Of a stretch of 64,000 bases of DNA, positions 7,171 to 55,327 are shown piece after piece. The stretch is taken from the IMG/VR virus record IMGVR_UViG_3300045988_179398, positions 32,001 to 96,000 of that record. The stretch is one strand, 5' to 3'. The stretch's first letter is position 1, and every line of letters begins with the position of its first letter. The notes under the pieces are model-generated. The model saw only the letters and a list, made by a program, of their open reading frames with translations. It ran no database searches and was not told the origin of the DNA. The DNA comes from a virus. The position numbers were made by a program, and so were the translations under genes.

Positions 7171-7355
7171 TGGCTTGTAAATTTGCTATTGATAAAAATG
7201 GGCCAGTTCAAATAGCTTGTAGTAAATTACATAATATGAATTGTCCTTATCAATATTGGTGTACGACTTTTCATCGTTTTAATAGTACCGCCACTAAAGA
7301 TAAATGTAAATATTACGAAGAAGCCGAGAACTCGGAACAACTGAATAAAAAATAA
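7170..7355 (+). CDS. Small Cys-rich protein (61 aa)
   Basis: TAATG stop/start overlap with the upstream gene. Six Cys residues. The terminator follows immediately. Confidence 0.4.
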   Translation: MACKFAIDKNGPVQIACSKLHNMNCPYQYWCTTFHRFNSTATKDKCKYYEEAENSEQLNKK

Positions 7356-7362
7356 ATAAATT

Positions 7363-7409
7363 AGAACCCGTTGAATGTGTTATGCGATACGTTCGCGGGT
7401 TCTTTTTTA
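7363..7409 (+). terminator. Rho-independent terminator
   Basis: AGAACCCG (7363-7370) pairs with CGGGTTCT (7396-7403) and is followed by TTTTTT. Confidence 0.7.
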
Positions 7410-7524
7410 TCTATCGTGCAATAAAACAAAACTTTTATTCAACGAAAATAGTAAAAAAGAGAGATAAAAGATAAGAAAAGAGGAATAATAACATAAAAAA
7501 TCTAAAATTATAAGGAGGTTTATT

Positions 7525-8427: not shown

Positions 8428-8465
8428 AGGCGTCGCTTAATTTAGATAAATAATCGAGGTACAAT

Positions 8466-8792
8466 ATGATTTCAATCAAAACATTTTACGCTTATGGTAA
8501 AGAAAAGCCAATTACAGGCGAGAGTTCTGTTATTTTTAACAATTCTGCGGAAACCCTCACTATGCAAGTTGACGAACTAGCGGGTAGTGTTGAGTTATAT
8601 GGTACCGCAGATTTCGATTCAAATATTTTTTACAAACTCACGGGCAATAATTTGTCTTTTGAGTTAGTAAACAAAATCACAACCGACGGGATTTACCACT
8701 TTTCAATTGAAGGCATTGCAAAAATCAAATTCGAGGTCGAAAATACCAATAAAGATTTGATTGTATTTTGCCGAATGACAAAGGGGGTATAA
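8466..8792 (+). CDS. Hypothetical small virion-module protein
   Basis: 108-aa ORF with GAGG upstream, tightly packed before the fibre gene. Confidence 0.5.
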   Translation: MISIKTFYAYGKEKPITGESSVIFNNSAETLTMQVDELAGSVELYGTADFDSNIFYKLTGNNLSFELVNKITTDGIYHFSIEGIAKIKFEVENTNKDLIVFCRMTKGV

Positions 8793-8796
8793 TCTT

Positions 8797-11043: not shown

Positions 11044-11108
11044 TCAAAATATAAAAAAATGTTTCCCCTAGCCCCGAAAGGGGTTGGGGGAGAATAACGG
11101 AGGGAAAT

Positions 11109-11444
11109 ATGAATATAGATACGATTGTTTTATACGCGATAATTGGCATAATAGCCGTTTGCTTGCTTGTTTTTGTAATTACGTGGATTGTGAAATTCTG
11201 CAAAATGAGCAAAGAAGAAAAAATAAAAACGCTGAAAACTTATCTCAAAGGGCTTGTTTCGCTCGCGGAGCAGGAGATAGTCGGAAGCAAAATGGGCGAA
11301 GAAAAGCTCGCAATGGTCGAGGCATACTTTAACAAAAAAGCCCCGATAATATATAAAATCATACTTTCGTTGCTTGGGAAAGACAACCTGAAAGAATTCA
11401 TAGAGGAAGCTCTTAAAGAAATCAAAGAATCGTTCGGAGGTTAA
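11109..11444 (+). CDS. Holin-like membrane protein (LL-H-type architecture)
   Basis: One N-terminal transmembrane segment (IVLYAIIGIIAVCLLVFVITWIV) followed by an amphipathic helical part with LVSLAEQEIVGSKMGEEKL. GGAGGG upstream. Confidence 0.5.
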   Translation: MNIDTIVLYAIIGIIAVCLLVFVITWIVKFCKMSKEEKIKTLKTYLKGLVSLAEQEIVGSKMGEEKLAMVEAYFNKKAPIIYKIILSLLGKDNLKEFIEEALKEIKESFGG

Positions 11445-11446
11445 TC

Positions 11447-11935
11447 ATGGCTGAATATCTTTCTACCCACACTGGGTTACGTGTCGACGAGGCGATCGCA
11501 AAAATCCCCGCTGGTAATCCAGGTGATAAATCGGTTATAGTCGTTAACACGGACGGAAAGCCTGAATACGCCCCTGCGACAACGGGGGTTGCCCCAAACA
11601 CGGTTCCAATTAGAGATACGGCGGGGAGAATTCAGGTTGCTGATGGCGTGAGCGATAGTGACGCGGCAAATTATGGACAGATCAAGAAATACGCTGACGA
11701 TAATTTTGTAAAAGCAAGAACAAATGTCACTGGCGAAAGTTTTGTATTATATGGAGCAAGTGCTGGTAATCCTAGCGATGGCGTTGAAATGGCTTTAACG
11801 GCAATTCCGTATACCGTTCCTCGAAGAGTTGCAAATGGGCAGATTTTTGTCGGAACACCTACCGAAGATTTACACGCCGTAAACAAGCAATACTTTGACA
11901 CAAATGTAACCACTTTCTCCGTGGAGGTGTGGTAA
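11447..11935 (+). CDS. Tail fibre-associated protein (two copies of the fibre motif)
   Basis: NTVPIRDTAGRIQVADGVSDSDAANYGQI and YTVPRRVANGQIFVGTPTEDLHAVNKQYF. Confidence 0.55.
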   Translation: MAEYLSTHTGLRVDEAIAKIPAGNPGDKSVIVVNTDGKPEYAPATTGVAPNTVPIRDTAGRIQVADGVSDSDAANYGQIKKYADDNFVKARTNVTGESFVLYGASAGNPSDGVEMALTAIPYTVPRRVANGQIFVGTPTEDLHAVNKQYFDTNVTTFSVEVW

Positions 11936-13308
11936 TGAAATTAAAAGTTAGTAATGTTTGTCAGTTGTTGGATAAGAGTAAATATCCTGCAACGATTACA
12001 AACAGCGGAGTTACTTTTACAAACAATGGCGATGGTACAATCACCCTAAATGGTACTAATACGGGTGGTAGTGAGAATTTATATAGTTTTATGCTTGTTT
12101 CTGTTAAGGCAGGACATTATTACTATATTTATTCGGGTCAGGAAGGAAGGTGGGAAAATTGTATGTTCACCGTTAATTACAGTATAAGTGCAATCAACGT
12201 CGATGGAAATATCGGTTTTCAAAATAAGTCTTTTGATAATTGTGTGGTATATTTATACATTGGTGCGGGAGCAACATTTAATAATTATATTGTAAAACCA
12301 CAGTTTTTCGACCTAACCGAAATGTATGGAGCAGGACACGAGCCTACCACGGTTGAACAATTCCGTCAAGACTTCCCGAACGAGATGTATGATTACAGTC
12401 CTGAGTGTTGGAAAAGGTTAAAAGAGTTGAGATATAGGACTGAAACGAAGAACTTATTTGATATAAGTAAAGCGGATATTACTCAACATAATGGGTATTG
12501 GACATCAAATGCTAATTATACGGAGCATTTTTATACACAAATTGTTGAGCCTGGTAAAGCTTATAGAGTGAGTTATGAATGCTACAACCCTTTAGCAGGA
12601 CTTGATGCTTTGAGTTTAGGTGTACAGACGGGTAATGGGTTTGGTGATGGCACGGCTTTATATATAGGATTAATAGGTGATGCCCACTATAAATGGGTTA
12701 AACAATATAGAGATTTCACAATTCCAAACGGTATAACACAAATAACTTTTTCGGCTTTTACAGAGACGATGTTTCGTAATCTACAATTCGAAGAAGGCTC
12801 AACAGGAACTCCCTATCAACCTTACGGTTATCTCCCATTAAGACGGGGGAAGTTTAGAACTGAGACGAGGAATTTACTACAACTAAATGACTTTTCAAAT
12901 AGTTGGCTTACTATAAAGGGTAATGCTATAAGGATAAAGAAGACAAACGATGTCCAAGTATATGATGACCAAGTAGGCTTTTCTCCAATTTCAAGTCAAT
13001 TAAAAGCAGGGAAGTATTATCGAATAAGTGCAAAAGTCATTGGAGAGTTTACGGGTAGATTGTACCGAATGTTTGGCGATAGTTTATACAGTAATGAAAT
13101 TGTAGACAGTCATTGGCAGAAAACATTTACCACCGATACGGTTACAGATAAGTATGGTCTTTATATTGCTCAAAATAACACAACTTCAATTGGTATGACC
13201 TTGATTAGCGATGAAGTTGTTATTTACGATATAATGCTTGAAGAAAGCGATACCGCATTCACGGGTATTGCTCAATATCAACCCTATAAACACGTATCTT
13301 TCCATTAA
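11935..13308 (+). CDS. Receptor-binding-type protein with three tandem beta-sandwich-like modules
   Basis: Start taken at the ATG in GGAGGTGTGGTAATG. Module ends are marked by RTET[KR]NL linkers and by ..FEEGSTGTPYQPYGY / ..QYQPYKHVSF, a pattern common in phage receptor-binding domains. Confidence 0.5.
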   Translation: MKLKVSNVCQLLDKSKYPATITNSGVTFTNNGDGTITLNGTNTGGSENLYSFMLVSVKAGHYYYIYSGQEGRWENCMFTVNYSISAINVDGNIGFQNKSFDNCVVYLYIGAGATFNNYIVKPQFFDLTEMYGAGHEPTTVEQFRQDFPNEMYDYSPECWKRLKELRYRTETKNLFDISKADITQHNGYWTSNANYTEHFYTQIVEPGKAYRVSYECYNPLAGLDALSLGVQTGNGFGDGTALYIGLIGDAHYKWVKQYRDFTIPNGITQITFSAFTETMFRNLQFEEGSTGTPYQPYGYLPLRRGKFRTETRNLLQLNDFSNSWLTIKGNAIRIKKTNDVQVYDDQVGFSPISSQLKAGKYYRISAKVIGEFTGRLYRMFGDSLYSNEIVDSHWQKTFTTDTVTDKYGLYIAQNNTTSIGMTLISDEVVIYDIMLEESDTAFTGIAQYQPYKHVSFH

Positions 13309-13319
13309 GGAGGTAAAAG

Positions 13320-13619
13320 ATGGCAGAAACAAATATAAAAGATGTAAAATTAAAAATCGGCACGGAAGCTCAGTTTCAAGACAAACTGAAAGACTTACCG
13401 TTAAACACATTAGTCGGAGTTACCGACCCGATACAAGAGGGCGAGTTGGACACTTCGATTATAAACAAGTTGGACAAGGCGGAAAATGCGCTACCCAAAC
13501 CGACGAATGACAGTACGGGAACTGATGGGCAGGTTCTTACTAAAACCGCAGCGGGGAGCGTGTGGAAAACCCCAATCACCGCTACGCTCGACGGCACCGT
13601 TCTGACCTTGACGATATAA
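13320..13619 (+). CDS. Small fibre/adaptor-like protein
   Basis: 99 aa with AGGAGG upstream. The N-terminus VKLKIGTEAQFQDKL..LPLNTLVGVTD resembles the N-terminal module seen in HylP-like/fibre proteins. Confidence 0.45.
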   Translation: MAETNIKDVKLKIGTEAQFQDKLKDLPLNTLVGVTDPIQEGELDTSIINKLDKAENALPKPTNDSTGTDGQVLTKTAAGSVWKTPITATLDGTVLTLTI

Positions 13620-13629
13620 GGGGTGGGCT

Positions 13630-15183
13630 ATGAGCATAATGATAAATGGGACCGAGGTCACGGGCGTTATCGTGAATAAAGACGGTGTGCAAACCGACGT
13701 GACTGAAGTCCGTGTTAAAACGCAAGGAAGTACGTCCTACACGGTCGTTTTTACGAGCGCGTTACCCACTCCGACGAGTTATCGTGTTGATACACTCACA
13801 GAGATGATGGAGAACGAGGAATACGTCGATTACGGGGTTGTCCCGTTCCAAGACATCGATAGTTTAAAGGAAAGTCTTTTTAGAAACCAAAAAACGATTT
13901 TCTACTTACTCGATCCGTTGAACGCACACTACAATTACAATGGCGTGGCTTTCGCGAACGATTACCCACAGGTCGCAGACGTTTACAAGGATGCAACAGC
14001 TTCTACACCGCTGAACTTCGTCCCGACAGCTGCGGATGGTCAAGCGGTTTATACGACGTTCCAGATAGTCGACGCGCAGTTGAGCACGCCGAGTTTGGAG
14101 GCTTATAACAATTATACAAATTTGAGCTTTGGTTTTGCGTTGCGTTACGGGTTGACGCTTAGAGATAATCTTTTTGAAATTCCAGCAGATGATGTTTTGC
14201 AGGCTTTCCACCGAATAACCGATATGGTGACCGACAGAGGGGATGATATTATCGTTATTTATTTAAATGACAGAATGACGCCTGAACGTCTTCAATATAC
14301 GTTCTCGAAAGGGTTTGGTGCTTATGTCGATACTTACGGTTCGGCTGTTGATCAGCAAAAGCGCAAAATCGCCGTGTTATTAGTCGGAGACAAGACGATA
14401 ACCGAGTTCACGAATTATCAAGAAATCATCGGTAATGCTTTCGCGCAGTCAGGAATTGCGGAGAACGCGGGTATGGACGCTAATTTATTATCTGATTACG
14501 CTCAATGGAATGACACGCTTACCAACATACTAATTAACCCGTCTTCCCAGTTGTCTCACTCTCAGGTTTATACCATCCCTATTCCAGCCACAACAAGTTA
14601 TGTGAATGCGCAAGGTTGGGTTGGTTGGGATAGCGGCGAGGTAGATAAATATCTTTATGATACATTGGGACAAATTTGGAGTAACGGGGTAAGTGATTTT
14701 AATAAAGCGATTATCAGATTCGACGATAATATTTCGAGCAGCCTAGACGGGCAAGTTAATCAATCTTTCACTATGTCGACAGATCCGAATTATTACGTCC
14801 CGCCTTATATATATGACCTTATACATGTATCGACGCTCACTTTTGAATTGCCAGCAGCAACGTTATTCGTTGATGAATTAAATTATAATTATACCAACAT
14901 AGATAAATTAGTTGGAAATTTTTCCACTATTTGTTTCGGGCTTCGGCTGTGGCCGATTTTTTATTCAAGTTTAGGCGGAGGCGGAGACACGACAGGGAGC
15001 AATTGGAATTCGTTAATGCGGCACATTGTTCGCACCGAAAGAAAACGATTGAATATTCCATCGGATGTTACAAACGAAGAACTTTTAAGCTACTTTAGTT
15101 CGATGTATGGAAGCATCTCGGAAAAGATAACATCTAGCAACGTCAAGAATTGCGGTGACAATTATATAGTCGGGCTTAAATAA
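13630..15183 (+). CDS. Hypothetical large fibre-cluster protein
   Basis: 517-aa ORF, GGGGTGGG upstream, no motif recognised. Confidence 0.5.
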   Translation: MSIMINGTEVTGVIVNKDGVQTDVTEVRVKTQGSTSYTVVFTSALPTPTSYRVDTLTEMMENEEYVDYGVVPFQDIDSLKESLFRNQKTIFYLLDPLNAHYNYNGVAFANDYPQVADVYKDATASTPLNFVPTAADGQAVYTTFQIVDAQLSTPSLEAYNNYTNLSFGFALRYGLTLRDNLFEIPADDVLQAFHRITDMVTDRGDDIIVIYLNDRMTPERLQYTFSKGFGAYVDTYGSAVDQQKRKIAVLLVGDKTITEFTNYQEIIGNAFAQSGIAENAGMDANLLSDYAQWNDTLTNILINPSSQLSHSQVYTIPIPATTSYVNAQGWVGWDSGEVDKYLYDTLGQIWSNGVSDFNKAIIRFDDNISSSLDGQVNQSFTMSTDPNYYVPPYIYDLIHVSTLTFELPAATLFVDELNYNYTNIDKLVGNFSTICFGLRLWPIFYSSLGGGGDTTGSNWNSLMRHIVRTERKRLNIPSDVTNEELLSYFSSMYGSISEKITSSNVKNCGDNYIVGLK

Positions 15184-15200
15184 TTTCAAAGGAGAGAATT

Positions 15201-15551
15201 ATGGGTCTTTTTAAGGAAAATTACGAGAGTAAAAAATTGGGCATTACGCTGCCGAAAGCGTATGCGTATATAACCGATTTTAAGCTCAAAGAAACGGCTG
15301 GCAAAACTTACGGCAGAGCCATATTTGCAGTTCAGACTTCGAGGGAGGCGTGCGTGAACAAAGCACCCATTGAGGAAGTTATACTCGAAAGCATCGAACT
15401 CGATAGAAGCAAAAATGTGCTTAAACAGGTTTACGACAAAATGAAAGAGGGAGAAACCCACGAAATCATAAATCCCGAAACGGGTAAAAAAGAAACGGTT
15501 GAATTTGGAATGCCGTTTTACGGTTGGTCGGATGATATTACAGCCGAATAA
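15201..15551 (+). CDS. Hypothetical protein
   Basis: 116-aa ORF with AAGGAGAG upstream. Confidence 0.5.
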   Translation: MGLFKENYESKKLGITLPKAYAYITDFKLKETAGKTYGRAIFAVQTSREACVNKAPIEEVILESIELDRSKNVLKQVYDKMKEGETHEIINPETGKKETVEFGMPFYGWSDDITAE

Positions 15552-15595
15552 TAAACCACAATTTTTTAAAAATAATATCTAGGAGGATCTGCCTT

Positions 15596-16636
15596 ATGGC
15601 AAGAACGACGGTTTATAACGAAGATTTGTCAAAAGAATGGCAGGTCGTCAATCCAAAAAACCAAAAATTATTGCGGGAGTTTGTGCGTTATTGCGTCGCG
15701 AACGATAAAAGCCCGCACACTTGTAATCAATACGAATCGCAGCTCAAAATCTTTTTCTGCTGGAATTACAGAGAAAACGCCGACAAGTTTTTTATCGACG
15801 TTAAGAAGCGCGATTTGGTCAACTTTTTCGGCTGGGGGAGAGAAATCGGATGGAGCCCGTGTCGGCTCGCCTCTCTCCGCGCCGTGTTGAGCTCGTTCAG
15901 CAATTACATCGAACGAATACTCGACGAAGATTACCCCACGTTTAGGAATCTTGTAAAGGTTCTCGAGCCGATCCATCTCGAAGCCGTCCGCGAAAAGACG
16001 ATTATCGAGAAAGACGATATAATGGCGGGGATTGAGCGATTGGTCGCACTTGGCGAGTACCAATACGCGTGTTTTCTCTCGCTTCTCTTTTCATCTGGAA
16101 TGCGCAAGTCCGAAGCGGTGCAAATGAAGGTTTCGTTTTTCACGACCGAAAGACAAGATGCTCTCGGTGGGCTCGCTTATATGACCCCAAAAATCAGGAC
16201 GAAAGGACACGGAGCGCGGGGCAAACAAGTTCAAAGGTACGTTTTTAAGGAAACCTTTGACAAATACTTTGACTTATGGATGAAGGAGCGCGAAAAGCTT
16301 GGCGTGAAAACCGACGCGCTTTTTGTTATAAAAGGCGGGTATGAAGATTACCAACCCGCGAAATCGCAAAATTTCTCCCATTGGGCGCAGAAAATCGGCG
16401 AGCTGATAGGCGTTGAATCGTTATATTGCCACAGCCTGCGACACGCGTTCACCACGTACTTAAAGCGTAACGGAACGCCAACCGACGTGGTACAAAAACT
16501 CCAATCTTGGGGAAGTGCGGATATGGTTGCGAGATATGACGATCGAAGCGAAAGCGAAGAGTTGGACGAGTTCTTCTCGACGCTTTCTGGTGAAAAAACA
16601 ACGGTTAAGGAGGAATGTGATTTATGGCAGAAGTAA
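15596..16636 (+). CDS. Tyrosine recombinase / integrase
   Basis: N-terminal SAM-like core-binding region. Catalytic signature SGMRKSEA (Arg), HSLRHAFTTY (His-x-x-Arg) and a C-terminal ..SADMVARYDD (Tyr). AGGAGG upstream. Confidence 0.85.
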   Translation: MARTTVYNEDLSKEWQVVNPKNQKLLREFVRYCVANDKSPHTCNQYESQLKIFFCWNYRENADKFFIDVKKRDLVNFFGWGREIGWSPCRLASLRAVLSSFSNYIERILDEDYPTFRNLVKVLEPIHLEAVREKTIIEKDDIMAGIERLVALGEYQYACFLSLLFSSGMRKSEAVQMKVSFFTTERQDALGGLAYMTPKIRTKGHGARGKQVQRYVFKETFDKYFDLWMKEREKLGVKTDALFVIKGGYEDYQPAKSQNFSHWAQKIGELIGVESLYCHSLRHAFTTYLKRNGTPTDVVQKLQSWGSADMVARYDDRSESEELDEFFSTLSGEKTTVKEECDLWQK

Positions 16637-17724
16637 TAGGCGATAACACCATACCGAACGGGTTATCGGCAAACGTAATGCGCGAGTTGTTACAGAGCAA
16701 AAATATGCTCAAAAACAAAGGCGATATGTATATAGGTACTGGAATACAGGAAAACGGAGTATATAAAACGGGAATTTTATCTGGCCCGAGCAAAGGCGGT
16801 TTGGTTTTAGCGGGGACAAATGCGGGAAGTGGTGTCGATGTTCAATACAAATCAGCACTTGATATTTTAAATGAAGATTTAACCATTGGTGATTCCGATG
16901 GAATACACATAGGTAAAAGTGCCGAGACGTCTAATGGAGGCGTAGCGATTGGCGTGTTCGCAGAAGCTAAAAATGATGGGACCACCTCATATGGAAATTA
17001 TGCAAAAAGCCTTGGCAAATATTCGGCTGCCATTGGTAATTTGGCAAATGCAACTGCTGAATACGCATACCAATTAGGGCCTGGAGAGAACAGTGTTGCA
17101 AATTCATTAAAATTCATAAATACACAAATTGTGGACGGGACGGGGAACGTAAATGCCACAAAAATAAACGGAGTGTTGAGCACGGAGATTTTTGAAAGTG
17201 ATGGGAAGACGGCAAAAAATAGTACGTTGGCGCAAAGTGTTGTTAATGGCTCTATTATAAAAGATTCATTCAAAACTCCTAAGCAATTGGTTTCGCATTC
17301 AATTTGCATTAAAGCATCGAATTTCTCAATGGAAGTTGCGGTCCTCTGTGTTAATAATAGTGACCCTTATGGTAATAACTTTTTAAATTTTTGCAAAGAC
17401 TATGAGACCACTGCGGTCGTTCGTGCGGAGCATTTGATGGTTTGTGGATACATAAATAGGGAAAGCGATGGAAGCGGCTTATCTATAAATATTAAACCAG
17501 TGATGAAGATGTGGAGAATATCGGCGGGTCAGGTTTTTCAATATGAAATTAATTTTACTGGAGTAGAGTATAATTCGACCACAAATCGTACAGAACAAAC
17601 GTCCTTATCTTTATATATACGAAATGGAGACGATGGAACCAAGGCTTATAAATATATAGAACCGACTTCTGGCGAACCAGTTTATACCATGTATGACTTG
17701 GCTTATTCGGTAACTGGGGTATAA
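16624..17724 (+). CDS. Fibre-like/receptor-binding candidate
   Basis: 366 aa, overlaps the integrase stop by 13 nt. Gly/Asn/Ser-rich repetitive middle part. Last gene before a strong terminator. Confidence 0.45.
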   Translation: MAEVIGDNTIPNGLSANVMRELLQSKNMLKNKGDMYIGTGIQENGVYKTGILSGPSKGGLVLAGTNAGSGVDVQYKSALDILNEDLTIGDSDGIHIGKSAETSNGGVAIGVFAEAKNDGTTSYGNYAKSLGKYSAAIGNLANATAEYAYQLGPGENSVANSLKFINTQIVDGTGNVNATKINGVLSTEIFESDGKTAKNSTLAQSVVNGSIIKDSFKTPKQLVSHSICIKASNFSMEVAVLCVNNSDPYGNNFLNFCKDYETTAVVRAEHLMVCGYINRESDGSGLSINIKPVMKMWRISAGQVFQYEINFTGVEYNSTTNRTEQTSLSLYIRNGDDGTKAYKYIEPTSGEPVYTMYDLAYSVTGV

Positions 17725-17836
17725 TATCTTTTATGTCGATAATTTATGTAATAATATAAATAAAGATAGTTGCAATTAAATAAAACCCTCGTTTTATTAC
17801 AAGGAAAAAATTTAGGATATTTTTTTTGGTAAAATT

Positions 17837-17869
17837 AGAGACTTCGCTACGCGCGAGGTCTCTTTTTTA
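17837..17869 (+). terminator. Rho-independent terminator
   Basis: AGAGACTTCGC (17837-17847) pairs with GCGAGGTCTCT (17853-17863), 11 bp including one G-U, followed by TTTTTT. Confidence 0.75.
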
Positions 17870-17926
17870 CTATATTTTTTGGAATTTAGGAACTTTAAAT
17901 TAGAAAATAATCACAGGAGGAATGAT

Positions 17927-18370
17927 ATGTTTGAATTAAAAGAAAAAATGCTGGAGATTTATAACGAAGGCGACAAAAAAATACCGTTAGAACGTTATCG
18001 TTCCGAGGGTGTTAGATATATACAAGACAATATTCGGAGCGTTGCGTATGATTCAATCACGCGAACGTATTCGGAGAGCGGAAATAGACGACTAATTGAT
18101 TTACCTGATTTATTTAATTCGGTCAGGTTTAATCAACTCGACCAATGGAATTTTGATATGATGATTGACAAATCGTTAATTTACGAGAAGCAAAATCGAT
18201 TACGGCAAAACGAAGAGGTTTACGGAATGTCGAGTTTGATATATCGAGACGCGACGGAATTTAGCGAGAATGATTTAATCAGAATGCAAGTTCGATTGGA
18301 AAACGATGTAGAAAAATTTATAGATACGAATTTTACGGAATATTTAGGTAAATTGGTTAGGAGGAAATAA
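17927..18370 (+). CDS. Hypothetical protein upstream of tape measure (possible tail assembly chaperone by position only)
   Basis: Start set at MFELKEK after CAGGAGG; the track's 17879 start lies inside the AT-rich leader. Confidence 0.45.
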   Translation: MFELKEKMLEIYNEGDKKIPLERYRSEGVRYIQDNIRSVAYDSITRTYSESGNRRLIDLPDLFNSVRFNQLDQWNFDMMIDKSLIYEKQNRLRQNEEVYGMSSLIYRDATEFSENDLIRMQVRLENDVEKFIDTNFTEYLGKLVRRK

Positions 18371-18375
18371 AGTTT

Positions 18376-21300
18376 ATGATAATGAATCGTGCTGAATTAG
18401 ATAAATATTTGGCTAATAATATAGTTTATACTGGCGAATATCTCGAAGCTATGTCTGCGAAAGACTTTGCAACTTTAAACGAAGCCGCGAAAAAGAAGGT
18501 TCAAGAAATGGCTAAGCGCGGAAGAGAAGAGAGTGCGATGAAAGGGTCTTTGGCGGATATGGAAGCAAAGGCTAAAAGTCTTGGATATGATGTTGCGTAC
18601 AATGTAAACAAAAAAACTAATGAAATAGAAGTCATCTTGGTTGAAAAAGGGCAAGATGTAAAGAAAAATTATGAAAAAGTTGCGGCTGAAGCACCGACCT
18701 TCAAACTTTCTATCGGCGAAGGAACTCGTGGCGGAAAGGGAAGAATGGCTGCGCCAAAATCTTACGCACCACACGTTAGCAAAAGCGGCAAAGGGACTGT
18801 TTTACTCACACAGGTGGAAGAAACTATAAATAGTGTTACTGACGCTTTGTCAAAGCTCGACAGCAGAAAAACAAGACCCGACAAAGGATATGTTAAACAT
18901 GAAGTGAAGAAAGCACAGCGGTTGGCAGAACAATCTATCGTTACGACCGAGGGCTATTCGGTTGTTGATGAAGATAAATTCATGGAAGAAATGAAAAGAG
19001 AAACCTCGAATGCAAGAGGACAATTTGTTCGAACTAGTATGAGAGTAGGCGGCTTAATTGGCGAAGTTATTAAAAAAAGCAATTTTACCAAAAATATAAC
19101 AGCTGCTCAGAGATTAACACAGGACGAACTTAAAGCTCTTAATCAAAAGGCGGACGCGGTTGTAACGAAATACCTTGCGATTTATGCACAAGAAGGAGAA
19201 AAAGCAGCCGATAATTATTTTAAAGCCACCAAGGTCTTAAAAGACGATTTTAAATTGAGTGAAGATGATATTAAAGCTCAATTAGAAGCGGTTAAATCTG
19301 GATTTGGTGACTTTTTATATTTGCCGTCTTCCTTTGGTTTGAGCGGTGATAACGCTTTAAATACGAAAAAATTTTCCTATGTAGGCGATAGAGATTTAGC
19401 ATTCCGTCCATCCACGAGAACTGGTAGACATACGTCGCAAACAAGGAATTATCTCGAACGTAGCCAAAGAGCAAAATCAAGAGTCAAAAAAAGAGCCACG
19501 GAACGTTTTATTCCTGATGTTGATAAAGCAGATACTTCTTATTATAAAGAAATGGGGCATCAATTATATAAGCGTGGCTTGGTTTCTGGTGGGACTAAGG
19601 ATGGGATTGAATATACTCCGCAGATGTTGGTCACTAAAGCATATGAAGATGCTGCGGCTGCTTATATTGAAGAGAAGGTAAAAAAACTCAAAGAGAGCAA
19701 AAAATATAATAAAGCTTCCGACGCTCGTAAAGCAAAAATGGAAGAAGAATTGCGAGATAATATTCAAAAATCGCTTCCGACGATAGCTCAACTTGGCATT
19801 ATGGAAGATGCTGGTTTAATGAGTGAATCCGCCGCTCGTGAATTCGAATCGAGCAGAATGGTGACGACGACTATTTCTGAAAATGAATACGACAAATTGC
19901 AAAAAGAAGCCAAAGAAAAATACGAAAAACTTTCTGAAAAAGCTAAGAAGGCTGTAAATTTATCGGATTTTACCGATCGATTTATCGCTAAAAAAGCACT
20001 TAAACGCAGTAAACTTTCTGACGTAGATATTTTTCGTAATGGAGCGGAGGGTGCTTTTTCTATATCTGCAACGGAAACAGTTGGTGGAAATAGAGCTAAA
20101 TTGCTTTCGAGATATACTGGCGCTCGTGAAACAGACGTTGCCGTTCCTGATTTTATTTTCAATAGGATGGCAAAAGAGCTTAAGATTGAAGGCGCCGACA
20201 TAATTAGTGCGGCGAAAAAGTTTAAAGCGGAGGAAATTCCTGGGTATTTTCAAGGATTATTAGGTGCTTCTATATCGCAACGAACAGCAGGCAAAAACCA
20301 AGATGAAATAGAAAAAACACTTAAAGATACGGTTGCCGCTTTAAATTCAATCGGCTTTAAAGCTTCACTTGGTGAGAATGGAGAAATTTTTATAGATAAT
20401 TCTGACGAAGCAGTGTCACAGATTAAGTGGGATAAAGCATTGGGTTATCTTGAAAGTCTCAATATTCTTAAGCAAATCGATGGCGGTTTTGAATTTGTAA
20501 ATCCAGCAACAATTATAGAAGATGTTATTAATCAAGCGGATACATACGATCCGTCGAAAAAGGTTAAAACAAGCCCAAAAGAGTATTCAAGTGTAAAACG
20601 TGATATCGCCGAGGCGATGGCTGCCTCTGGAGATAAGAGCAAATTCAAATCTTTGGCGGCAGATGTCGATAGAATGTATGATCCAACCACTGGAGCGTTC
20701 GGCGCCGAAGCCAAAAAGGCATCGGTTGACATAGATGCCATATTGAATAAAAAAACGGGGTCTATAGTAAAAACTTATCAAACGACCATAAGTGGGAAAG
20801 ACAGAATAAAAGACGTCACTTCTCTTAAGAGAAAAAGTTATAAAGGGAAGATGAAAAATAAAAAGGGTGCTCACTATATAATATCCGTTGGGCGTGGTTC
20901 TGGGTACACCATTGACGCCTCTCAGTTAGAAATGGCAGCAATCAATTATCAAGAGGCTGGCGGTTTGCTTACTCGTGAAGATTATGAAAACACAGTTCTT
21001 GGTACAATTAATAAAGTCAAGTCGGAAATACTCACGAATGATACAACTGCCTCGGTAGATGTCATGATCGATCCTGGCACTGATTTTGGATTTGGTATGT
21101 CGTTCGATGGAGAAAACGCCTCGGAAGGAGCAACTGGAAGATTTTTGGTTTTGCCAAATGTTGAAATAGACACTGTGCAAAAGGATGGCGAAACATTATA
21201 TAGTTTGCCAAGTTACAACAAAGAGATTCATTCTCTCATTGGTTCGATTAAATCGGGGCAAGGGGATAGCGGTAAAATAGCACAAGAGTTAAATAAGAAA

Positions 21301-24300
21301 ATGTTTGATGCCGCACATTCAAGCAAAGGGACGTTGTGGCAAAAGGCGCATACTAAGCGACAGGGCGGATCAACGAGTGGTCACATTACTGGCATATCTC
21401 AAGATGCGATTGATAAAGCGTTAGCTGAAGGCGATATCGAAAAAGCAAAGAGATTGGCTTCCGATATCTGGGTAAGCGAAAAAGCAATGATGGAAATGCT
21501 TTCCAGCAAAACCCCTTATACAAGCGCAGATGGTGTTTATAATGTTTCCGAACATCAAAATTTTTTAACAGAAGCGGTGAAGCACTTATATAAAGACGAA
21601 GCTGGTGGTATACTCGATGGTTTAAGTGGTTCCGATGACGAAAAAAATAAAATATTATCCAGAGCAATTGCTCAAAGAATAGCAGATGATAAATTTACTG
21701 GCGCAAAAGAAGGGTTGGCGGGCATAATGAACCGTTTCCCGTCGATTGCACAATTATCAGCTGTTTTCAGTAGTTACCATGTTTCTTCCCAATTACAAGG
21801 GAAAGATATAATGGTTGGTGCCGCAATTGCAAAATTTGTAAACGGCGACTATGACGGAGATACTTTGCAACTTGTATTGGGGTTGATGAGCAGCGGAAAA
21901 TCGTTTGAAGAAGCCGATGAAATGGTCGAAAGGCAGCGAGAGAAAAACCTTAATCTTTATAAACAGATGTTCTCGAAAGGAAAAGGTGAGCCGCTCGATA
22001 AAACTGTCGCAACTCTAACAGATGCGCAAAAATTATCAGACCCGAAATATATGGGATTGTCTGCGTTGGCGGCTAAATTCAATAAACCTTATACGGGAAT
22101 GTTTTCTAATATTTCCACGCGTATAAGAGAAGGGTTGAAATTTACTGGTTTTGATGTTATCGATGAGCAAGGCAATCCAAGAGAATTATCTTCGGTTAAT
22201 GATTATATCGACGTAATAAGAGGTAAATTAGTTGCTGGCGTTGGGCAAATATTGGAACAAGATAGTATTTCTTCTAAAAAGGTCGAAAAGCGTTTAGATG
22301 AAGCAAGGAAAGCGAAAGGAAGAGATTTAACATCCGAAGAAGAAGAGGCAGAGCAACTTAAAGTTTTGCAAGAGTTTGAAGATTTGTATAATATGATGAG
22401 GGATCCGAAATCCTCATATTCCGATATTATAGGAAGAATGTCCGAAATGGGATTATTCGGTTCAGACGTCACTCAAATTTCAAGCACTTTAAGCTCAAAT
22501 ATTTTAGGATTGTTAAAAGGCGTATCTGGCGAAGATAGAAATATAATTCTTTCGAGACTCGGAATTTCTGAAGACGATTTAACGAAAGGTGCTTTATCAT
22601 CAGATGTTTATAAAAATGCTGGGAATGCTTTGGAAAACCAACTTGTTGATCCAACCACAGGAAAGCGGCTCAAAATATTCGCAGGCGAGTATGGAACTGG
22701 TTTAGCAACCTCGAGATCTTTCACCCCTTATATGAAGCAGGATACCTATGAGCTTCTTAGGTTTTTAAAATCATTGGAAGATGTTAATAGCGTATTAAAA
22801 AAGACTGGCGAAATAATTGATGAAAATGGTAACAAATTCAATCAGTATGGTGAGAGAATTAAAGAAGCGAAATCTTCGTTGGCGGCAGAAGCAGGGCAAG
22901 AATCTGCAAAAGTTGTTATTGCTGCTAAAGAAGGAAAGACGATAGAAAGGAATGTTGATATTTACCAGAAATTATCTGAAAAATTAAAGACGGCTGGTAA
23001 TAATTATAACGAGATTAACCGTTTATCGACTTCTGAGCTAAAAAGCAGATTACTTCCTTACGGCGGAGAACAAACGACTGGAATCGACGAGAAAACTTTA
23101 AATAGCGTTTATCGAAAAATCAAAGCTGGCAAAACGTTTACAAAAGCAGAACTCGCTACGCAATTTGGTGTCGAGGACGAAAAGGCGTTAAACTCATTAT
23201 TCCTTGGTAATTTAAGTACCGTTCGTGGTAATTATATCCATAACTTATCGCAGGGAGATGTTAAAGGCGCAAGGAAAGAAAAACTGAAACTTCAAAAAAT
23301 GTTTGGAGTTTTGGGGTATTCAGATGAGCAAATCGCAAGCACGTTTGATACATATAAGGCTGGCGCCAAAAACGTAAAGGCTATAACTAAACAATACGGC
23401 AGGTCTTTGGGCTCAGAAATTCCTTTTATCGGAATGACGAGTGATGGGCAATACGTTGTCAATGCTCGAGGAGACGAATTTTTCGTTGGCGAGCGTGCAA
23501 ATCCGTTTTATGATAAAGACTTTAAAGATCCAAATCAAAAGAAGATGCAAAGGGTCTTTACCGCTGTTGATTATAAAACACATACAAGTGGGAAACTCGA
23601 AGACTCTGATATTGTTCAAGGTGTAATATACAAAACATTTCTTGAAGATTTACAGACACGTTTAAAGAGTATAAAAGGCGACGTAGATATTGATTCTTTC
23701 CGTGCCGAAGTTAGTAAAGGTATGAAATATACCTCGAAAACAGAAGAAAGAGAAGCTTTGCTTGCTAAAATTACACCAGATCTTATTAAAAACCTGAAAG
23801 AATCAGATGTTGTTCAAACAGAAATTATTGTTGTAAATCCCTCAACTGGTTCTGCTCAAGCATATTCCGTTGGGGCTGATAAAGATAAATTCAAAGTAGC
23901 ACGTGATATAATTCTTAGTGGCGATACTTCTCCTTTAACATCGGAAGAGAAGACTTCGGTAAAAAGCGTAGCGAAGAAAAGGACTGACGCAAGATACTTT
24001 AAACCAGGCGAACAACAAGAAGGGATTGGAAGTATAGAGGATAAACTCAAACAAAGTGGTGGTGTTACCGCTGAGCAAAAGAACGAATCTCAAAAAGAGT
24101 ATAACACTCTCGTTTCAGAAGAGTTTAAACTCAAAAAAGAAATCGCTGCTCTCGATAAAGAACGCTGGAAGTTGACCAATATTGAAGGCAAAAAGAGCAC
24201 CGACTATACAGTTCAAAATCTCGATGCGGAAAAACAATGGCGCCAAGACGAGTTAAAACGTATGCAAGATCGCAAAGCCGAACTTGAGGGTTTGGGTGCG

Positions 24301-24974
24301 GTTGAAAGTAAAGCGACAACGGCTTCGAATGAAGAAAAAATGACCGCGTATTTGACGCGATTAGGCGTCGGCGCAGATGGGAAAATGGCTTTAACACCCG
24401 AAGAACAGGCAGATTACTGGTCTCAATACGAGCGTGCGCTTGACAAACAGGCTCGCGCGGAAGAAGAGATTTTCGGTATTCGAAATAAAGCGCAGACAAG
24501 TTACGGAACAGAGAAAAACTTACTTTATCAAATTGCAGACGAGAAAGAAAAAGCGCTGGTAACGGATAAAGCAAATGTCGCAATGCTCGAAAAGATTGTT
24601 GGCAAACTTGATCCGACCCGTCTTGCGAACATCAAAGAACAGGTTGCACTTAACCAACAGCTTTATAAACTGCAAGCACTCAAACAAACCCGTGGCGCGA
24701 CCTCTATTTGGGACGTTATGGCGAACGATATTCGTCGTGCGACCATGCGTATTGCAGACTTCGGAATTGCTGCGAAGGTTTTAAACAAGATTCCGCAGGA
24801 TATACAGAAGGTAATTCAGTATACGAAAGAGTTAGACGCGGCGATGACGAATATCAGAATCGTTAGCGGAAAATCGATGGAAGAAGCGCAGGAATTTATG
24901 CGCGGATTACAACAAATAGCACAAAAAACAGGTACAACTTTAAGCGAGTTGGCGAGTGCTGCCAACGAGTGGCT
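18376..24974 (+). CDS. Giant tail protein, exon 1: N-terminal two-barrel RNA-polymerase-like module + coiled-coil region + start of TP901-type tape-measure core
   Basis: AGGAGG upstream. Residues 1119-1162 (NRFPS...GK-x12-NGDYDGD) align with the RNAP beta-prime active-site barrel. KGKMKNKKG...VDVMIDPGTDFGFGMS is beta-like. The C-terminal ...SGKSMEEAQEFMRGLQQIAQKTGTTLSELASAANEWL is the canonical start of the tape-measure core. The apparent stop at 25008 lies inside the intron. Confidence 0.8.
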
Positions 24975-25281
24975 TGACGATTGTCTGGGTCACTATAAAC
25001 TCCTTTAATTGCTGGAACCCCCTTAGAACCATATAGCTACAACATAACGATGAAATATGCGCAAGTGTGATAGTTGAAAATATATGGATTGGGAAATCAG
25101 CAGCCAAGCCTCGAATAGAGGAAGGTTCAACGAATATGTTCCACGAGTGTGGATAATGGGGAGCTCTACATAGAGAAATCTATGCGAAAGATATATTCTG
25201 AACTTCTGGGGAAACTCAGAGAAAATTCTATTATAGAATCTTTTAAATGATAAACTAAATTTAAAAGTAACACAATTACAG
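24975..25281 (+). ncRNA. Group I intron (ORF-less) interrupting the tape-measure gene
   Basis: All four conserved elements occur in the correct order: P AATTGCTGGAA (25007-17), Q AATCAGCAGCC (25095-105), R GTTCAACGAATAT (25125-37) and S AAGATATATTC (25188-98). P4 TGCTG/CAGCA and P7 GAATAT/ATATTC pair perfectly. P1 pairs exon AGTGGCTT (24968-75) with GGGTCACT (24987-94), placing a U-G wobble at the splice site. G25281 serves as omega-G. P10 pairs ACAA (25282-85) with TTGT (24981-84). Boundaries are +/-1 nt. Confidence 0.85.
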
Positions 25282-28200
25282 ACAAGGTTATGAAAGCACT
25301 GAGGAGATAGAAGAACTTCTCGACGCTTCGACAAAATTAAGTAAGCTTGGTATGATACCCGCAAGCGAAAGCGTTAAACTCTTAACGTCGAGCTTAAAAG
25401 GTATGAAGTTATCCGCGAACGAAGCGATTTCCGTCGTTGATAAGTTGACAAAACTTGACATGAAGAGTGCTACGAGTGCGCAGGAACTCGCCCAAGCTTT
25501 AAGCAAGGTTGCAAACTCGGCGCGTCTCGCGAAAGTGTCTCAAGACGAAATTTTGGGTATTCTCAGTGTCGGTATTGAAACGACGCAACAGAGTGGTGAT
25601 GTTATCGGCACGGCTGTCAGAAGTCTTTTGGCAAGGTTCTCAAACGTTAAAGCTTCGAAATTTGGCGGAAGTGGAGAAGAAACCGAGGGAACGTTGAACG
25701 ATACGGAAGCCGTTCTTTCTAAGATTGGAATTCGTATAAGAAGTGCGTCGGGCGAAATGCGCTCGTTTATAGACGTTCTCGATGATGTCGCAGAAAAGTG
25801 GGATACTCTCGATGATGTTTCCCGTAATGCCATCAGTACCGCCATGGCAGGCACTAGACAAAAGGAGATCTTCGCATCAATCATTGAAAATTACGATCGC
25901 GTAAGAGAATTGATAAACGAATCTGCCAATGCCGCAGGAACCGCTGACGAGAAATACACCGCTTACATGGACTCTATGGAGGCGGCGACGAAGCGGCTCC
26001 AAAACGCGTGGGAAGGATTTACTCAATCGCTCGAAACGAGCACGGTAATGAAATCTATTACAAATACGGCTGCGTTTTTTGTCGAAAATGCTGATAAACT
26101 CAAGTATCTTGTGACTTATATAGCAGCCGCTGGTTCAGTAAAATTTTTTAACTTCTTGACCAACAAAGGCGAAACGGGCGGCTGGAAAGGTTTGGTTGCC
26201 AATATCCCGTTTGTAGGCAGAGGAACGAAGACTAACAATATCCTCGAAAGTATTGACAAAAAAGTCGGCAACATCGAGAGAGGTGTCGGAGCGGATTCGT
26301 TAGCAAATCAAACAAAGAATGGTGGTTTCTTTAAAAGGCTTGGCGGTTTCTTAAAAACTGGCTTTGGATTTGGGGATATTTATGATCCAGAAACTGGGAA
26401 GAGTATTTCTTATAGAGAAGCAAAGGCATATGGCAAACTTTTAAAATCGACTACTGGGGGGACCGCAGTAACCGATCCACAAATGAACCAATATGTAAAA
26501 CTCCTTAAACAGCGTAAAATCGGTAATGTCGCGATGGGTGCAACTTCTGCCGTTTTAACTAATCTGTTTACTACGAAACAAGTCGGCGGAAGCGGATTTG
26601 GGAAGCTGGTTAATACAACCAATCAAACCGTAGAAGAAACTACTGGCGATAAAATCGGGAGGACGGTTCTTTCTGGTGCCCTTGCTGGGCTCGGAGGATA
26701 CGTTTTAGGTCCTTTTGGAGCTATAATTGGGCAAACTCTAGGCGAAAATTTTGCAGGAATGTTCTCGACTTGGTTCCATCGTGACGAGCTTGCGATGAAG
26801 CAGCGCGTCGCTGAAGCCAAAGAGAATCTTGCAGCGCTGAAAAACTTGGATACGACCTTAGACAGTATAAATCTTGCAGAAGAAGGCAGCGCTGATGAGT
26901 TCGCGAATAAATTGAGAGATTATTTCACAGATAACCCCGATTTGTTCAAGCCCTTAATAGGATCATTAAACGATAGTAAAGCGATACAGGGAATAGATAG
27001 AATTTCTCAATTAGTGAACTTAGTTAAGAACAATAACACGGCCGACAACGAGAAGATTTTACAGGCGTTGAAAGTCGCTATTCCCAAAGGGAAAATCGGG
27101 GAGATATACGACTCTCAAGAAGAAGAACGCGCGAAAATTATAAAAGAAGAACAATCGGTTATTTATAGTGTTTCACAGTTACGTGATATTTTAGACCGTG
27201 TTAGTCAGGTCGATAAGAGTGTAGATTGGAGCCCCATAATAGGTGGAGATTGGGGCACCATAGAGGGAAGACTGGCCATTTTCGAAAAGCTCCGAGATAT
27301 AAATAGTGAAAATCTTAAGGATATTCTGCCTGATGAGTACATTGATTATTATATAAACAAAGTGAAACCCCTTGCTATAAAAATGCAAGCGCTGGATGAC
27401 GAGATTCTTACCCCGATTGCGCAATTCGGTTTTAATAAGTCTAATATTGCCAATCTTTCGGGGTATGAATTGACCGATCTCGGTGTTGAGGGGGCTGTCA
27501 AAAAGGTTGCAGATACACTGCAAGACGCGGGTTATAATGTCATGACTAACGGTCTGATACATAGGGATATATATGACCAGATTATGAATCAAATTAAAAA
27601 ATCTGATATATATAAGAGTTTGCAGTATGGTACAAAGACCATAGGGGAACTCGACCTAAACAAGGAACAAGATTTAAAGAGATTTGAACAGTTCGCTCAC
27701 GCGTTTGGTATTTCTATAGACAAAGCCGAAAAATTAAAAGAAGAATTCGGAGATTTATCTACTGCGATGGCTTATATGACGCCGCAAGAAGTGCTTGATT
27801 ATTATAATAATTTATCGTCCATATTCAACGATTTGGCTACTAACGCCGCAGTTTCGGCTGAAAACATCGAAAAAATATTAACCGACGAAAATTATAAGAG
27901 TCTTATTCCTTATTTAACCAAAGGGAACGAAGCACTTCAAGCCAACCTTTATAAAAGGTTGTTGGGCGGAGAGAAGGACTTTGTTTATGAGGCATCTTTA
28001 TTTTCTTCGTTAATGTCCAACAAGGATATTTTTGAGAGTTTCACAGATAAGCTCGAAGACGAAGGTTTGAAGAAGAGAATTAGCGAATTAGGCTACACGT
28101 CTTTCCAATCCATTATTTCTGCCGTTCAGGACGGGACCATTAAAGAGAGTGATGAAATTGTTCAAAAGGCAAAAGAAGAAATCGAAGCTTGGAACGTAGA

Positions 28201-29467
28201 ATACAAGAAAGACTTGGAGGGGACCAATAAACTTATTTCTTATCAAACGTCCCTTTTAGACAAACAAATCACTAACCTTAACGACCAAAAATCGGCGTTA
28301 AAAGATGTTAACAATGAGCGCGAAAAAGAGCTTAATCTCATAAAGGCGAGACAAGCACTTGAAGACGCACGGAAAGAAAAGAAGAGGGTTTATCGTGCGG
28401 GTGTCGGGTTTGTTATGGAAAGTAACGAAGAAGCAATAAATTCCGCTCAGAAAGCGCTCGACGATCTTGACGTTGAAAAGAGGCAGGAGGAAATCCAACT
28501 TCGAATAGACGCCCTACAGCAAGAAAAAGATATTCTAGAAAATTTGCCCAAAGAAGAAGAAATGGCGCAGCTTTCGAAGATATATGCTCAATGGGCTGGC
28601 GATGGCGAAGGCAGCATGAACTCTGTTTCCAAGGCAACCGCCGATTTGGTTGCAAAATACAAAGATTCAATCGGGGCGCTGGATGCTTATAAAAAGTTCG
28701 TCGATGAACTTAGGATTGAAAAGCCCAAAGATAATACCCCGCCGTCTTCCAACAACAACACTTTAGGTGCTCGACGTATCAATGTGGGTAGTATTGAGGG
28801 TGTAGATGACGATAAGTATAAGAAAAATTATAGGGGTTACGACGGGATGTCGATCACATTCGACGGAACAACGTATGAAGTGTTAACGTCGAATAAGAAA
28901 GATGATATTAGAGAGCAAGAATTTATCAAAGCCAAGTATAAAGAATTATATAAAAATCCCAAAACAGGAGAAGTTGACGATCCTAAAACAGGAGATGTCG
29001 TCTCCTATGGTGGGAACTATTATGTTTACCACGAAAGTAATACAACTTGGGAAAAAATTCTTAATGAAAGAGATGGCGAAGAGTTAATTAAAGCTTTCCG
29101 TGACAAGGGATATTCTTCTGGAACAACTTCCTTCCAAGGTGGCAGAGCTCTTGTCAATGAGCTCGGAACCGAGGCGGTCATTACTCCAGGCGGCACGCTT
29201 ACCGCGCTTCCTTCGAAGACGGGTATCGTCCCTGCGGACATAACCCGAAATGTTTGGGCACTCGGCGAAGTTGCTCCGACGCTGGTTGCGCAGCTTAGTT
29301 CGCTTAATCAAAAAGCGCTCACTGGCAACGCTGGAAACACGACTTATGAAGAAGGTCAATACATCGATAATCTTACCATGAACGTTTATCCGACAAAGGA
29401 TTACGATATGGATAAGTTGCTTTCCGAGGCGCGTGCCAAGGCGAAGCTCACAAGGCACAACAATTAA
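25282..29467 (+). CDS. Giant tail protein, exon 2: remainder of the tape-measure protein
   Basis: The frame is open upstream of the track's ATG (25352) back to 25271. Splicing gives ...AANEWL-QGYEATEEIEELLDASTKLSKLGMIPASE..., restoring the tape-measure core. The C-terminal ...LVNELGTEAVITPGGTLTALPSKTGIVPA motif is typical of tape measures. Confidence 0.85.
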
Positions 29468-55115: not shown

Positions 55116-55327
55116 AAAGGTGTGGGCTTGCCCACTAGTTGATCAGACTAAGTGTTAAGCTACGTTATCAAAGAATATATAGGCACCGTAGGATGTATTC
55201 TCCAGTCTTACGCTCTGCGGTATGTGATTAAACAGTTCTGATGAGTAGGAACAGTGTTGCATACGAAAACCTTTGAATAACATTGTCGTGGAGTAACCAC
55301 TCTAACATATAGGAGGCTATAAAAGCA
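55116..55327 (+). ncRNA. IscB-associated omega-RNA (HEARO-type) candidate
   Basis: 212-nt non-coding, comparatively GC-rich segment immediately 5' of iscB on the same strand, which is the known location of IscB omega-RNAs. Its 5' boundary and guide are undefined. Confidence 0.55.

Follow-up and report, generated by a model that had tools for sequence, protein, structure and literature searches.

Does a phage tail tape measure protein carry, at its N-terminus, an RNA polymerase (RNAP) that enters the host cell together with it? The question is raised by a giant gene at positions 18376 to 29467 on the plus strand of a 64,000-nt stretch of viral DNA, hereafter the window, which corresponds to positions 32,001 to 96,000 of the IMG/VR virus record IMGVR_UViG_3300045988_179398. 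In a first-pass annotation the gene had been read as a single-chain RNAP with two double-psi beta-barrels (DPBBs), fused to a tape measure protein of the TP901 type. We find that it encodes the tail tape measure of a large phage, that it is interrupted by a group I intron, and that the N-terminal part of its product contains a strictly conserved barrel homologous to the catalytic barrel of the RNAP beta-prime subunit. We consider it fairly probable that the N-terminal ~1,350 residues constitute an RNA-polymerase-type catalytic module, which would be delivered into the cell and be active there as proposed.

One tape measure gene in two exons

The ORF listing agrees with the earlier description of the locus as two open reading frames (ORFs) on the plus strand, 18376..25008 (2210 aa) and 25352..29467 (1371 aa), and the second is in a different frame from the first. 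Between them lies a group I intron of 307 nt without internal ORF (24975..25281, plus strand; Rfam family RF00028), and after its excision the frame is open for 3,594 codons, exactly the 3,594 aa that had been predicted for the spliced product. Exon 1 (18376..24974) encodes residues 1-2199 and the first two bases of codon 2200, and exon 2 (25282..29467) supplies the last base of this codon, residues 2201-3594 and the stop. Along exon 1, residues 1 to ~700 have no recognised fold, residues ~680-1340 form an RNAP-like core, residues ~1340-2100 are variable and rich in Lys and Glu, and the remainder is the start of the tape measure core; exon 2 contains the rest of this core and a long C-terminal tape measure region.

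The TP901-type core itself (residues 2143-2465, 24802..26077) is the part that the intron interrupts. In the spliced protein the NCBIfam model TIGR01760 (tape_meas_TP901) gives one unbroken match over the splice junction (E 2e-31; 109.3 bits, with a cut-off of 28.8), and exon 2 is matched by PF10145 (PhageMin_Tail; E 1.5e-22; 80.9 bits, with a cut-off of 33.2) and by 14 tape measure families of PHROGs. Since TIGR01760 and PF10145 score well above their curated cut-offs, the claim that a TP901-type core is part of the same polypeptide is upheld. For comparison, homologues were collected by an exhaustive phmmer search of 1.84 billion representative proteins, which returned 21 of them; a word-indexed search with residues 601-1500 found nothing, and only two fragments when it was run with a profile. 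Six homologues (3,609-4,008 aa) are uninterrupted and end-to-end colinear with the spliced product, and over residues 2100-2500 the uninterrupted homologues align with it without interruption at 40-51% identity. That the core is completed by exon 2 through excision of a group I intron, as the first-pass annotation had it, is a point on which Rfam, TIGR01760 and these homologues agree.

The Rfam match of the intron covers 24932-25221 and scores 47.2 bits, which is 2.8 under the gathering score of 50 (E 1e-10 locally, 7e-9 window-wide). In P1, GUGGCU (24969-24974) pairs with GGUCAC (24988-24993), which puts U24974.G24988 at the cleavage site; the first bases of exon 2, ACAA (25282-25285), can form P10 with UUGU (24981-24984); and the terminal G of the intron is 25281. 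Moreover, the same intron, at 93-98% identity, occurs in a 95%-related phage represented by ~159-kb contigs (L005 and L006), one of them from a Hadza gut metagenome, where it holds an 867-nt ORF encoding a DUF7487 domain, inserted in a peripheral loop after the equivalent of window position 25231 (L005 16927-17793). Compensatory base changes in the P1 of L005, from C-G to G-C and from G.U to G-C, support the splice point. The location of this DUF7487 ORF inside a group I intron is suggestive of a homing endonuclease. A second DUF7487-containing ORF (407 aa, window 74-1297) is present at the start of the window.

Splicing at these positions gives EWL|QGY (EWV-QGY in the close relative), while every intron-less homologue has EWLRQGY, which is one residue longer. 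The alternative junctions that restore the conserved Arg would all end the intron in a base other than G or place a base other than U at the 5' splice site, and the canonical junction was kept. In addition, the search of the phage collection at the DNA level gave one match only, in which 112 bp of the intron (window 24998-25109) have 79% identity to unannotated DNA of the Serratia/Pectobacterium jumbo phages 2050HW, Haymo and vB_ParM-25; these are presumably related group I introns.

The Rfam score slightly below the gathering threshold, the ATG that the second ORF possesses at 25352 and the one-residue mismatch at the junction could also be explained without any fusion, if an RNAP-like protein of 2,210 aa and a tape measure of 1,371 aa were separate products with a spacer or a dead intron between their genes. 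We regard this as highly improbable. The PhageMin_Tail match in the second ORF begins at profile position 54, and the absent N-terminal part of the core is found in the first ORF; TIGR01760 is one stretch over the junction, where the uninterrupted homologues are colinear; the U.G pair in P1, the compensatory changes in the relative, P10 and the terminal G are those of an intron; and the relative's copy with its DUF7487 ORF is laid out as mobile group I introns with a homing endonuclease typically are. Because the same intron is found in the 95%-related phage, the uninterrupted homologues are colinear and TIGR01760 extends across the junction, the two ORFs are confirmed at the sequence level as exons of one tape measure gene joined by a group I intron, for which self-splicing is predicted. 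With the mobile group I introns of phages it shares the RF00028 match, the 5' U.G, the terminal G, P1 and P10 and, in the relative's copy, the ORF; it differs from them in that the copy in the window has no ORF and in that its Rfam score falls short of the gathering value.

In its core domain and in being encoded upstream of tail genes within the tail module, the protein is like the TP901-1-type tape measure proteins (TIGR01760/PF10145), from which it differs by ~2,100 additional N-terminal residues with the polymerase-like module and by the intron within the core. Next after the giant gene come four ORFs (266, 1113, 357 and 411 aa), of which the fourth matches the 'tail protein' family phrog_1887 (E 2e-41), and the gene order around it is kept in two relatives (L004 and L005). 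A few genes upstream, within the tail/structural module, there is a gene with a tyrosine-recombinase (Phage_integrase) fold (window 15596-16636), which is kept in all relatives examined (L002 5118-6140, L004 5485-6540, L005 3889-4932); this is an unusual location for an integrase.

The beta-prime-type catalytic barrel

The catalytic motif of the first barrel, DPBB-A (21730..21861, plus strand), lies within the modelled RNAP-like core (20413..22395, plus strand; residues 680-1340, AlphaFold2) and consists of NRFPS (1119-1123), GK, AK and NGDYDGD (1156-1162). The motifs had been located correctly in the first-pass annotation (NRFPS from residue 1119, DYDGD from 1158, KGKMKNKKG at 823 and VDVMIDPGTDFGFGMS at 894), and the conservation that its reading presupposed is there, with D[YF]DGD present in every homologue spanning the site (~15), down to 27% identity. 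R1120, P1122, S1123, G1148, D1158, D1160, G1161 and D1162 are identical in 13/13 aligned sequences, and N1119 and K1153 in 12/13. An R-x-P about 35-40 residues before the metal-binding triad is a hallmark of the superfamily (R446/P448 in Rpb1; PMC2919709), and R1120/P1122 agree with the pattern [RK]xPx{20,100}DxDxD that served as a filter in PMC10770324.

Profile searches lead to the same site. The protein matches phrog_2987, 'RNA polymerase beta subunit', over residues 1091-1169 (E 2.4e-5), and when 11 family members were scanned singly, nine of them matched this family (best E 2.9e-7), nine matched Pfam RNA_pol_Rpb1_2 (best E 4.2e-5) and two matched baculovirus LEF-9 (E 5.9e-5). A profile of residues 1085-1320 compared with all PDB sequences gave 41 matches, 40 of which are RNAP largest subunits aligned at their NADFDGD barrel. 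The best was the non-virion RNAP gp55 of phage phiKZ (7OGP_A; E 5.8e-5, and 6.9e-7 with a longer profile), then came AR9 beta-prime (~7e-5; values of 2.4e-4 and, for 7S00_d, 2.6e-4 were also obtained), and subsequent matches were to enzymes of African swine fever virus, Pol V, archaea, poxviruses, Pol II and bacteria. Furthermore, hhalign reproduced in identical register the alignment with E. coli beta-prime that had been drawn by eye. The AlphaFold2 model of residues 680-1340 is moderately confident (pLDDT 74.5, pTM 0.68). With this model Foldseek retrieved from PDB, as its best 50 matches, exclusively chains of the beta-prime/Rpb1 type over ~300 columns (E 4e-4 to 7e-3), and from BFVD, ahead of viral RNAPs, an entry labelled 'Minor tail protein' that belongs to the uncultured gut siphovirus Siphoviridae sp. 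ctnpt50 (E 4e-15).

Single-sequence methods were less responsive, for neither phmmer against PDB nor a single-sequence Pfam scan produced a match for the polymerase module, as would be expected if the beta-prime resemblance were a chance motif in a giant protein of low complexity. This explanation is so improbable that we discount it, as the motif is invariant in ~15 homologues of 27-50% identity, and PHROGs, Pfam, the PDB sequences and the fold search all point to the active site of the RNAP largest subunit. The invariance down to 27% identity, together with the agreement of these four sources, argues for homology rather than chance, and residues 1119-1162 are by their sequence confirmed as a genuine double-psi barrel of the beta-prime type.

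After the barrel, conservation is highest at residues 1232-1306 (22069..22293, plus strand), which read AKFNKPYTGMFSNISTRIREGL ... GQILEQDSISSKKVEKR and in which N1236, G1241, F1243, S1244, T1248, R1251, L1254, E1294, Q1295, D1296, I1298, K1301, K1302, V1303 and R1306 are invariant. Long helices are predicted at 1237-1257 and 1274-1298 (model positions 558-578 and 595-619), and judging from the model they may correspond to the bridge helix and the trigger loop.

The family has ~15 members among the 1.8 billion representatives and is further represented by 25 related loci in IMG/VR and by several contigs of 130-217 kb; relatives of the phage are ~146-159 kb long and come from human gut and other metagenomes. 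In public databases its members are labelled 'minor tail protein' or 'hypothetical' only. The N-terminal module and the tape measure core occur together in the six uninterrupted homologues and likewise in an orthologue of 62% identity (L002; ENA ERZ27295280 k141_135970, 146.5 kb, 34% GC; locus 6896-18292). In that contig the gene caller has broken the giant gene into ~25 small ORFs, but it is one frame of 3,809 codons if TAG is a sense codon, with 32 in-frame TAG and zero TAA or TGA, and this relative apparently uses amber recoding. Some homologues end inside the tape measure core, namely P0003, P0006 and P0016 near the equivalent of residue ~2390 and P0002 near ~2235. Such recurrent ends suggest further interruption sites in the relatives; at the end of P0003 Rfam found no intron, on a contig (L038) that stops 367 nt past the stop codon. 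Among isolated phages the matches are weak only, to Edson, a jumbo phage of Bacillus (tblastn E 1e-3), and to the Bacillus phage WH1 (tblastn E 1e-2), where the matched product is annotated as 'virion structural protein'. The hypothetical protein of Edson (XXQ04534.1, 2,515 aa; L001 2403-9950) retains NRYPT...ADHDGD. At its C-terminus a hydrophobic segment and a poly-Pro tract are found in place of the tape measure, and its gene sits between two ORFs of >2,000 aa.

Proposed delivery and transcription, and the search for a second barrel

In the first-pass annotation no characterised RNAP-tape-measure fusion was known, a statement that is out of date: the tape measure protein gp96 of Thermus phage P23-45, with 5,002 aa, is such a fusion (Chaban et al., Nat Commun 2024, PMC10770324). 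Residues 327-1124 of gp96 (DFDGD at 779) are an active clamp-less two-barrel RNAP with crystal structures (8H2M and 8H2N), which is found in virions within the full-length protein and uses AT-rich promoters of its own to transcribe pre-early genes (PMC10770324). Because gp96 is an active virion RNAP fused to a tape measure, delivery of a polymerase in this way is plausible by precedent and not new in kind. By analogy, the giant gene of the window would be transcribed late along with the other tail genes, and the 307-nt intron would excise itself from the tape measure core to give one polypeptide of 3,594 aa, whose C-terminal ~1,450 residues would be the TP901-type tape measure within the tail tube. 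We infer that the N-terminal part would be packaged in the virion and, at infection, expelled with the tape measure before or alongside the DNA. The magnesium site DxDGD would then make RNA on the incoming genome, as in gp96, in a pre-early transcription possibly coupled to DNA entry, and the replication-module genes in the window, with their strong host-type promoters, would be read by the host RNAP. On this analogy the most likely role of the module would be to transcribe a small set of pre-early genes at the first-entering end of the genome, outside the window.

The second barrel, DPBB-B, which in this superfamily should provide the active site with one Asp and two basic residues, is where the first-pass annotation had to be corrected. 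It had described a single-chain two-barrel enzyme; one barrel (DPBB-A) was detected, and the supposed beta-like motifs fail in conservation, profile and fold tests. KGKMKNKKG, the first element of its beta-subunit match, lies in a gapped and variable stretch, and the pairing of KGKMKNKKG / VDVMIDPG... with GDKMAGRHGNKG / VDIVLNPLG... of E. coli beta was dropped, as this first motif is unconserved and hhalign does not pair the regions. The fold expected of both parts was borne out for the barrel at 1119-1162, which matches beta-prime-type chains, but not for the upstream region 715-1025, which has no significant fold match. A candidate for the second barrel is a beta-rich domain at residues 833-943 (20872..21204, plus strand), with strands in both models, in which G839, G841, Y844, I846, D899-P-G, G921-R922, N928 and Y942 are conserved. 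Its DPG lies inside VDVMIDPGTDFGF, with D899 in 13/13 and P900 and G901 in 12/13 aligned sequences; its relation to the beta motif is putative. For residues 200-700, comparison of a profile with PDB, E. coli beta and gp96 gave, as to a second barrel, only a spurious match of 38 residues to a Vps9 CUE domain.

Several results weigh against an active polymerase module. All two-barrel RNAPs known to us require a second barrel, and none was detected here. In Pfam and PHROG scans 0/11 family members match any family of the Rpb2 or beta type; hhalign pairs residues 715-1025 only with an unrelated stretch of E. coli beta (E 0.43) and residues 200-700 with nothing in it; and the AlphaFold model of residues 715-1025 (pLDDT 77.5) has a best Foldseek E-value of 0.22, so that no match is significant. 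The AlphaFold models were built from 11 sequences. In addition, only 23 columns around DFDGDT can be aligned with gp96 (hhalign E 0.043; blastp E 0.6), and by sequence the analogy between the two proteins is architectural and not one of orthology. No second, non-virion RNAP was found in the 64-kb window by a motif search and by Pfam and PHROG scans of ~40 of its ORFs. Finally, the promoters of the window appear to be meant for the host enzyme. As claimed before, there are sigma-70-like promoters in the early/replication region, namely seven near-identical AAACGCTTGACA-N17-TGnTATAAT sites (aaACGCTTGACa-N17-TGnTATAAT on the plus strand at 36564, 46109, 48713, 50914, 54285, 59029 and 61076). They follow the sigma-70/sigma-A consensus, and each has an A/T-rich tract before it and, after it, a Shine-Dalgarno sequence with a start codon; all of them are in the non-structural half, there are none on the minus strand of the window, and this host-like motif is the only recurrent promoter motif in it. 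Because host-type promoters appear to drive the non-structural genes of the window, a phage RNAP is not obviously needed for those. The sigma-70/sigma-A form also argues against a Bacteroidota host, though the closest match among metagenome-assembled genomes is binned as Bacteroidaceae (L034).

The missing beta part brings up the reading, rather unlikely in our judgement, that the module comprises beta-prime alone, as do the split N-terminal beta-prime subunits of the phiKZ and AR9 RNAPs, and is no self-sufficient single-chain polymerase; the module would then need a beta-like partner elsewhere in the genome or unrecognised in the chain. This reading would account for the top sequence matches being N-terminal fragments of jumbo-phage beta-prime (7OGP_A at 6.9e-7, 7S00_d at 2.6e-4), for the ~300 columns that Foldseek aligns to beta-prime chains, for the lack of any beta-type family match in the scans above, and for the composition of the 50 weak Foldseek matches of the 715-1025 model, which include 12 RNAP largest subunits but no beta subunit. 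Yet a beta-like ORF was not found among ~40 scanned ORFs of the window, which represents 64 kb of a genome of ~150 kb. The 1,100 residues before the barrel hold invariant D325, R351, H352, D478, R584, D899 and R922, which could form a divergent second barrel, and the DPBB-B of gp96 likewise escaped sequence methods until its crystal structure was available (PMC10770324). A single-chain two-barrel enzyme is a hypothesis, for which the beta-rich domain offers a candidate second barrel.

The host-type promoters of the visible early and replication genes would also be compatible with a module that is active but is no early-gene transcriptase, for example a DNA-pulling motor, a primer-making enzyme or a polymerase that copies RNA like the RNA-dependent RNA polymerases (RdRPs) of eukaryotes. 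The invariant metal triad implies catalysis, as far as sequence can, and does not define the template or the product; and the two-barrel enzymes include RdRPs as well as the DNA polymerase PolD (PMC10770324). Nevertheless, the matches of the family are to largest subunits of DNA-dependent RNAPs and not to PF05183 or PolD, and the sole characterised fusion with a tape measure is a promoter-specific DNA-dependent RNAP, so that we think such functions improbable and keep to pre-early transcription as the preferred role.

As to its other genes, the window encodes a DnaE-type DNA polymerase, a PD-(D/E)XK nuclease and a DnaB-like helicase. Within the replication module, a HEARO RNA (RF02033, 119.6 bits, 55096-55300) lies directly upstream of an ORF (55328-56608) with RRXRR and HNH domains, which is the layout of an IscB-type element, and there are two TnpB-type ORFs (52991-54103 and 61080-62234) with OrfB_IS605 and Cas12f1-like TNB domains, the second of which begins immediately after one of the conserved promoters. 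Genes for a FolD-like methylenetetrahydrofolate dehydrogenase/cyclohydrolase (58178-59026), tRNA-Ser(GCU) (60573-60666), tRNA-Trp(CCA) (60808-60882) and a protein with AAA_33 and HD domains (62371-63291) were also found.

Comparison with known polymerases

While a tape-measure-fused RNAP as such is already known from P23-45 gp96, the family described here is apparently, by its sequences, a second lineage in which a polymerase module is joined to the tape measure, unrelated to the first and widespread, with large mesophilic phages, gut phages among them, as its carriers. The carriers of the fusion named by Chaban et al. are close relatives within the Thermus phages only (PMC10770324), a literature search gave no further description of an RNAP-tape-measure fusion, and the supplementary tables of PMC10770324, checked for more such fusions, held nothing useful. 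[quoted passage not shown] The present family matters in that it is conserved, has a polymerase module that looks unlike that of gp96, and includes human gut phages (Hadza metagenome). Should the module prove active, tape-measure-borne delivery of a polymerase would be a more general way to start infection, and a mesophilic system would be at hand for studying the passage of a polymerase through the tail tube; if there is no second barrel in cis, the module would bear on the minimal architecture of the enzyme superfamily.

With gp96 the protein shares a giant tape measure in which the polymerase module is N-terminal and the tape measure C-terminal in one polypeptide, the motif RxP ... D[FY]DGDT at similar spacing (FRNPV-(37)-DFDGDTL in gp96, NRFPS-(34)-DYDGDTL here), and a polymerase module that is hard to find by sequence. 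The differences are considerable. The chains of gp96 are in the PDB library, yet they are not matched by the family profiles at E<=10 and are not among the best 50 Foldseek matches, and neither gp96 nor gp64 appears among the PDB profile matches. The catalytic motif is at residue 1158 here and at 779 in gp96, the lengths are 3,594 and 5,002 aa, the Pfam scan found no metallopeptidase domain here, and a group I intron splits the present gene. The host-type promoters and the GC content of 40% point to a mesophilic host. Moreover, activity, location in the virion, a second barrel and a partner non-virion RNAP have been demonstrated for gp96; in the present module, activity and virion location are proposed by analogy and the second barrel is a candidate.

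[quoted passage not shown] Like the phage members of this clade it is a phage-encoded single polypeptide with a DxDGD site, but its second barrel is a candidate only, and the searches lead elsewhere: 0/11 family members match the RdRP family PF05183 at E<=10, QDE-1 (2J7N) and gp66 (6VR4) are both absent from the PDB profile matches and from the best 50 Foldseek matches, and the best matches are beta-prime subunits of jumbo phages and cells. The N-terminal beta-prime subunits of jumbo phages (phiKZ gp55, 7OGP; AR9, 7S00/7S01) and the cellular beta-prime/Rpb1 subunits are the best in both profile and fold comparisons, and with them the protein has NR(x)P[ST] ... G ... N[AG]D[FY]DGD in common, in the same register as residues 424-464 of E. 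coli beta-prime. Over the aligned fold, however, identity to them is ~13-16%, their partner subunit has no counterpart found in the 64-kb window, and all of them belong to multi-chain enzymes in which the beta-like partners are chains of their own, unfused to structural proteins.

By sequence, then, the catalytic barrel looks nearer to the beta-prime of multisubunit and jumbo-phage enzymes than to the clade of gp96, YonO, QDE-1 and gp66, which is compatible with an independent fusion event and does not prove one. We tentatively put forward, as a possibility that we hold less likely than its opposite, that polymerase-tape-measure fusion arose at least two times, once in gp96 from a single-subunit, YonO/QDE-1-like clade and once here, where a TP901-type tape measure would have captured a module like the beta-prime of multisubunit or jumbo-phage enzymes, working with a second barrel too divergent to be recognised or with none in cis. 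If such an independent origin is true, polymerase delivery on the tape measure would be a recurrent convergent strategy of infection that occurs in abundant human-gut phages, some of which recode TAG.

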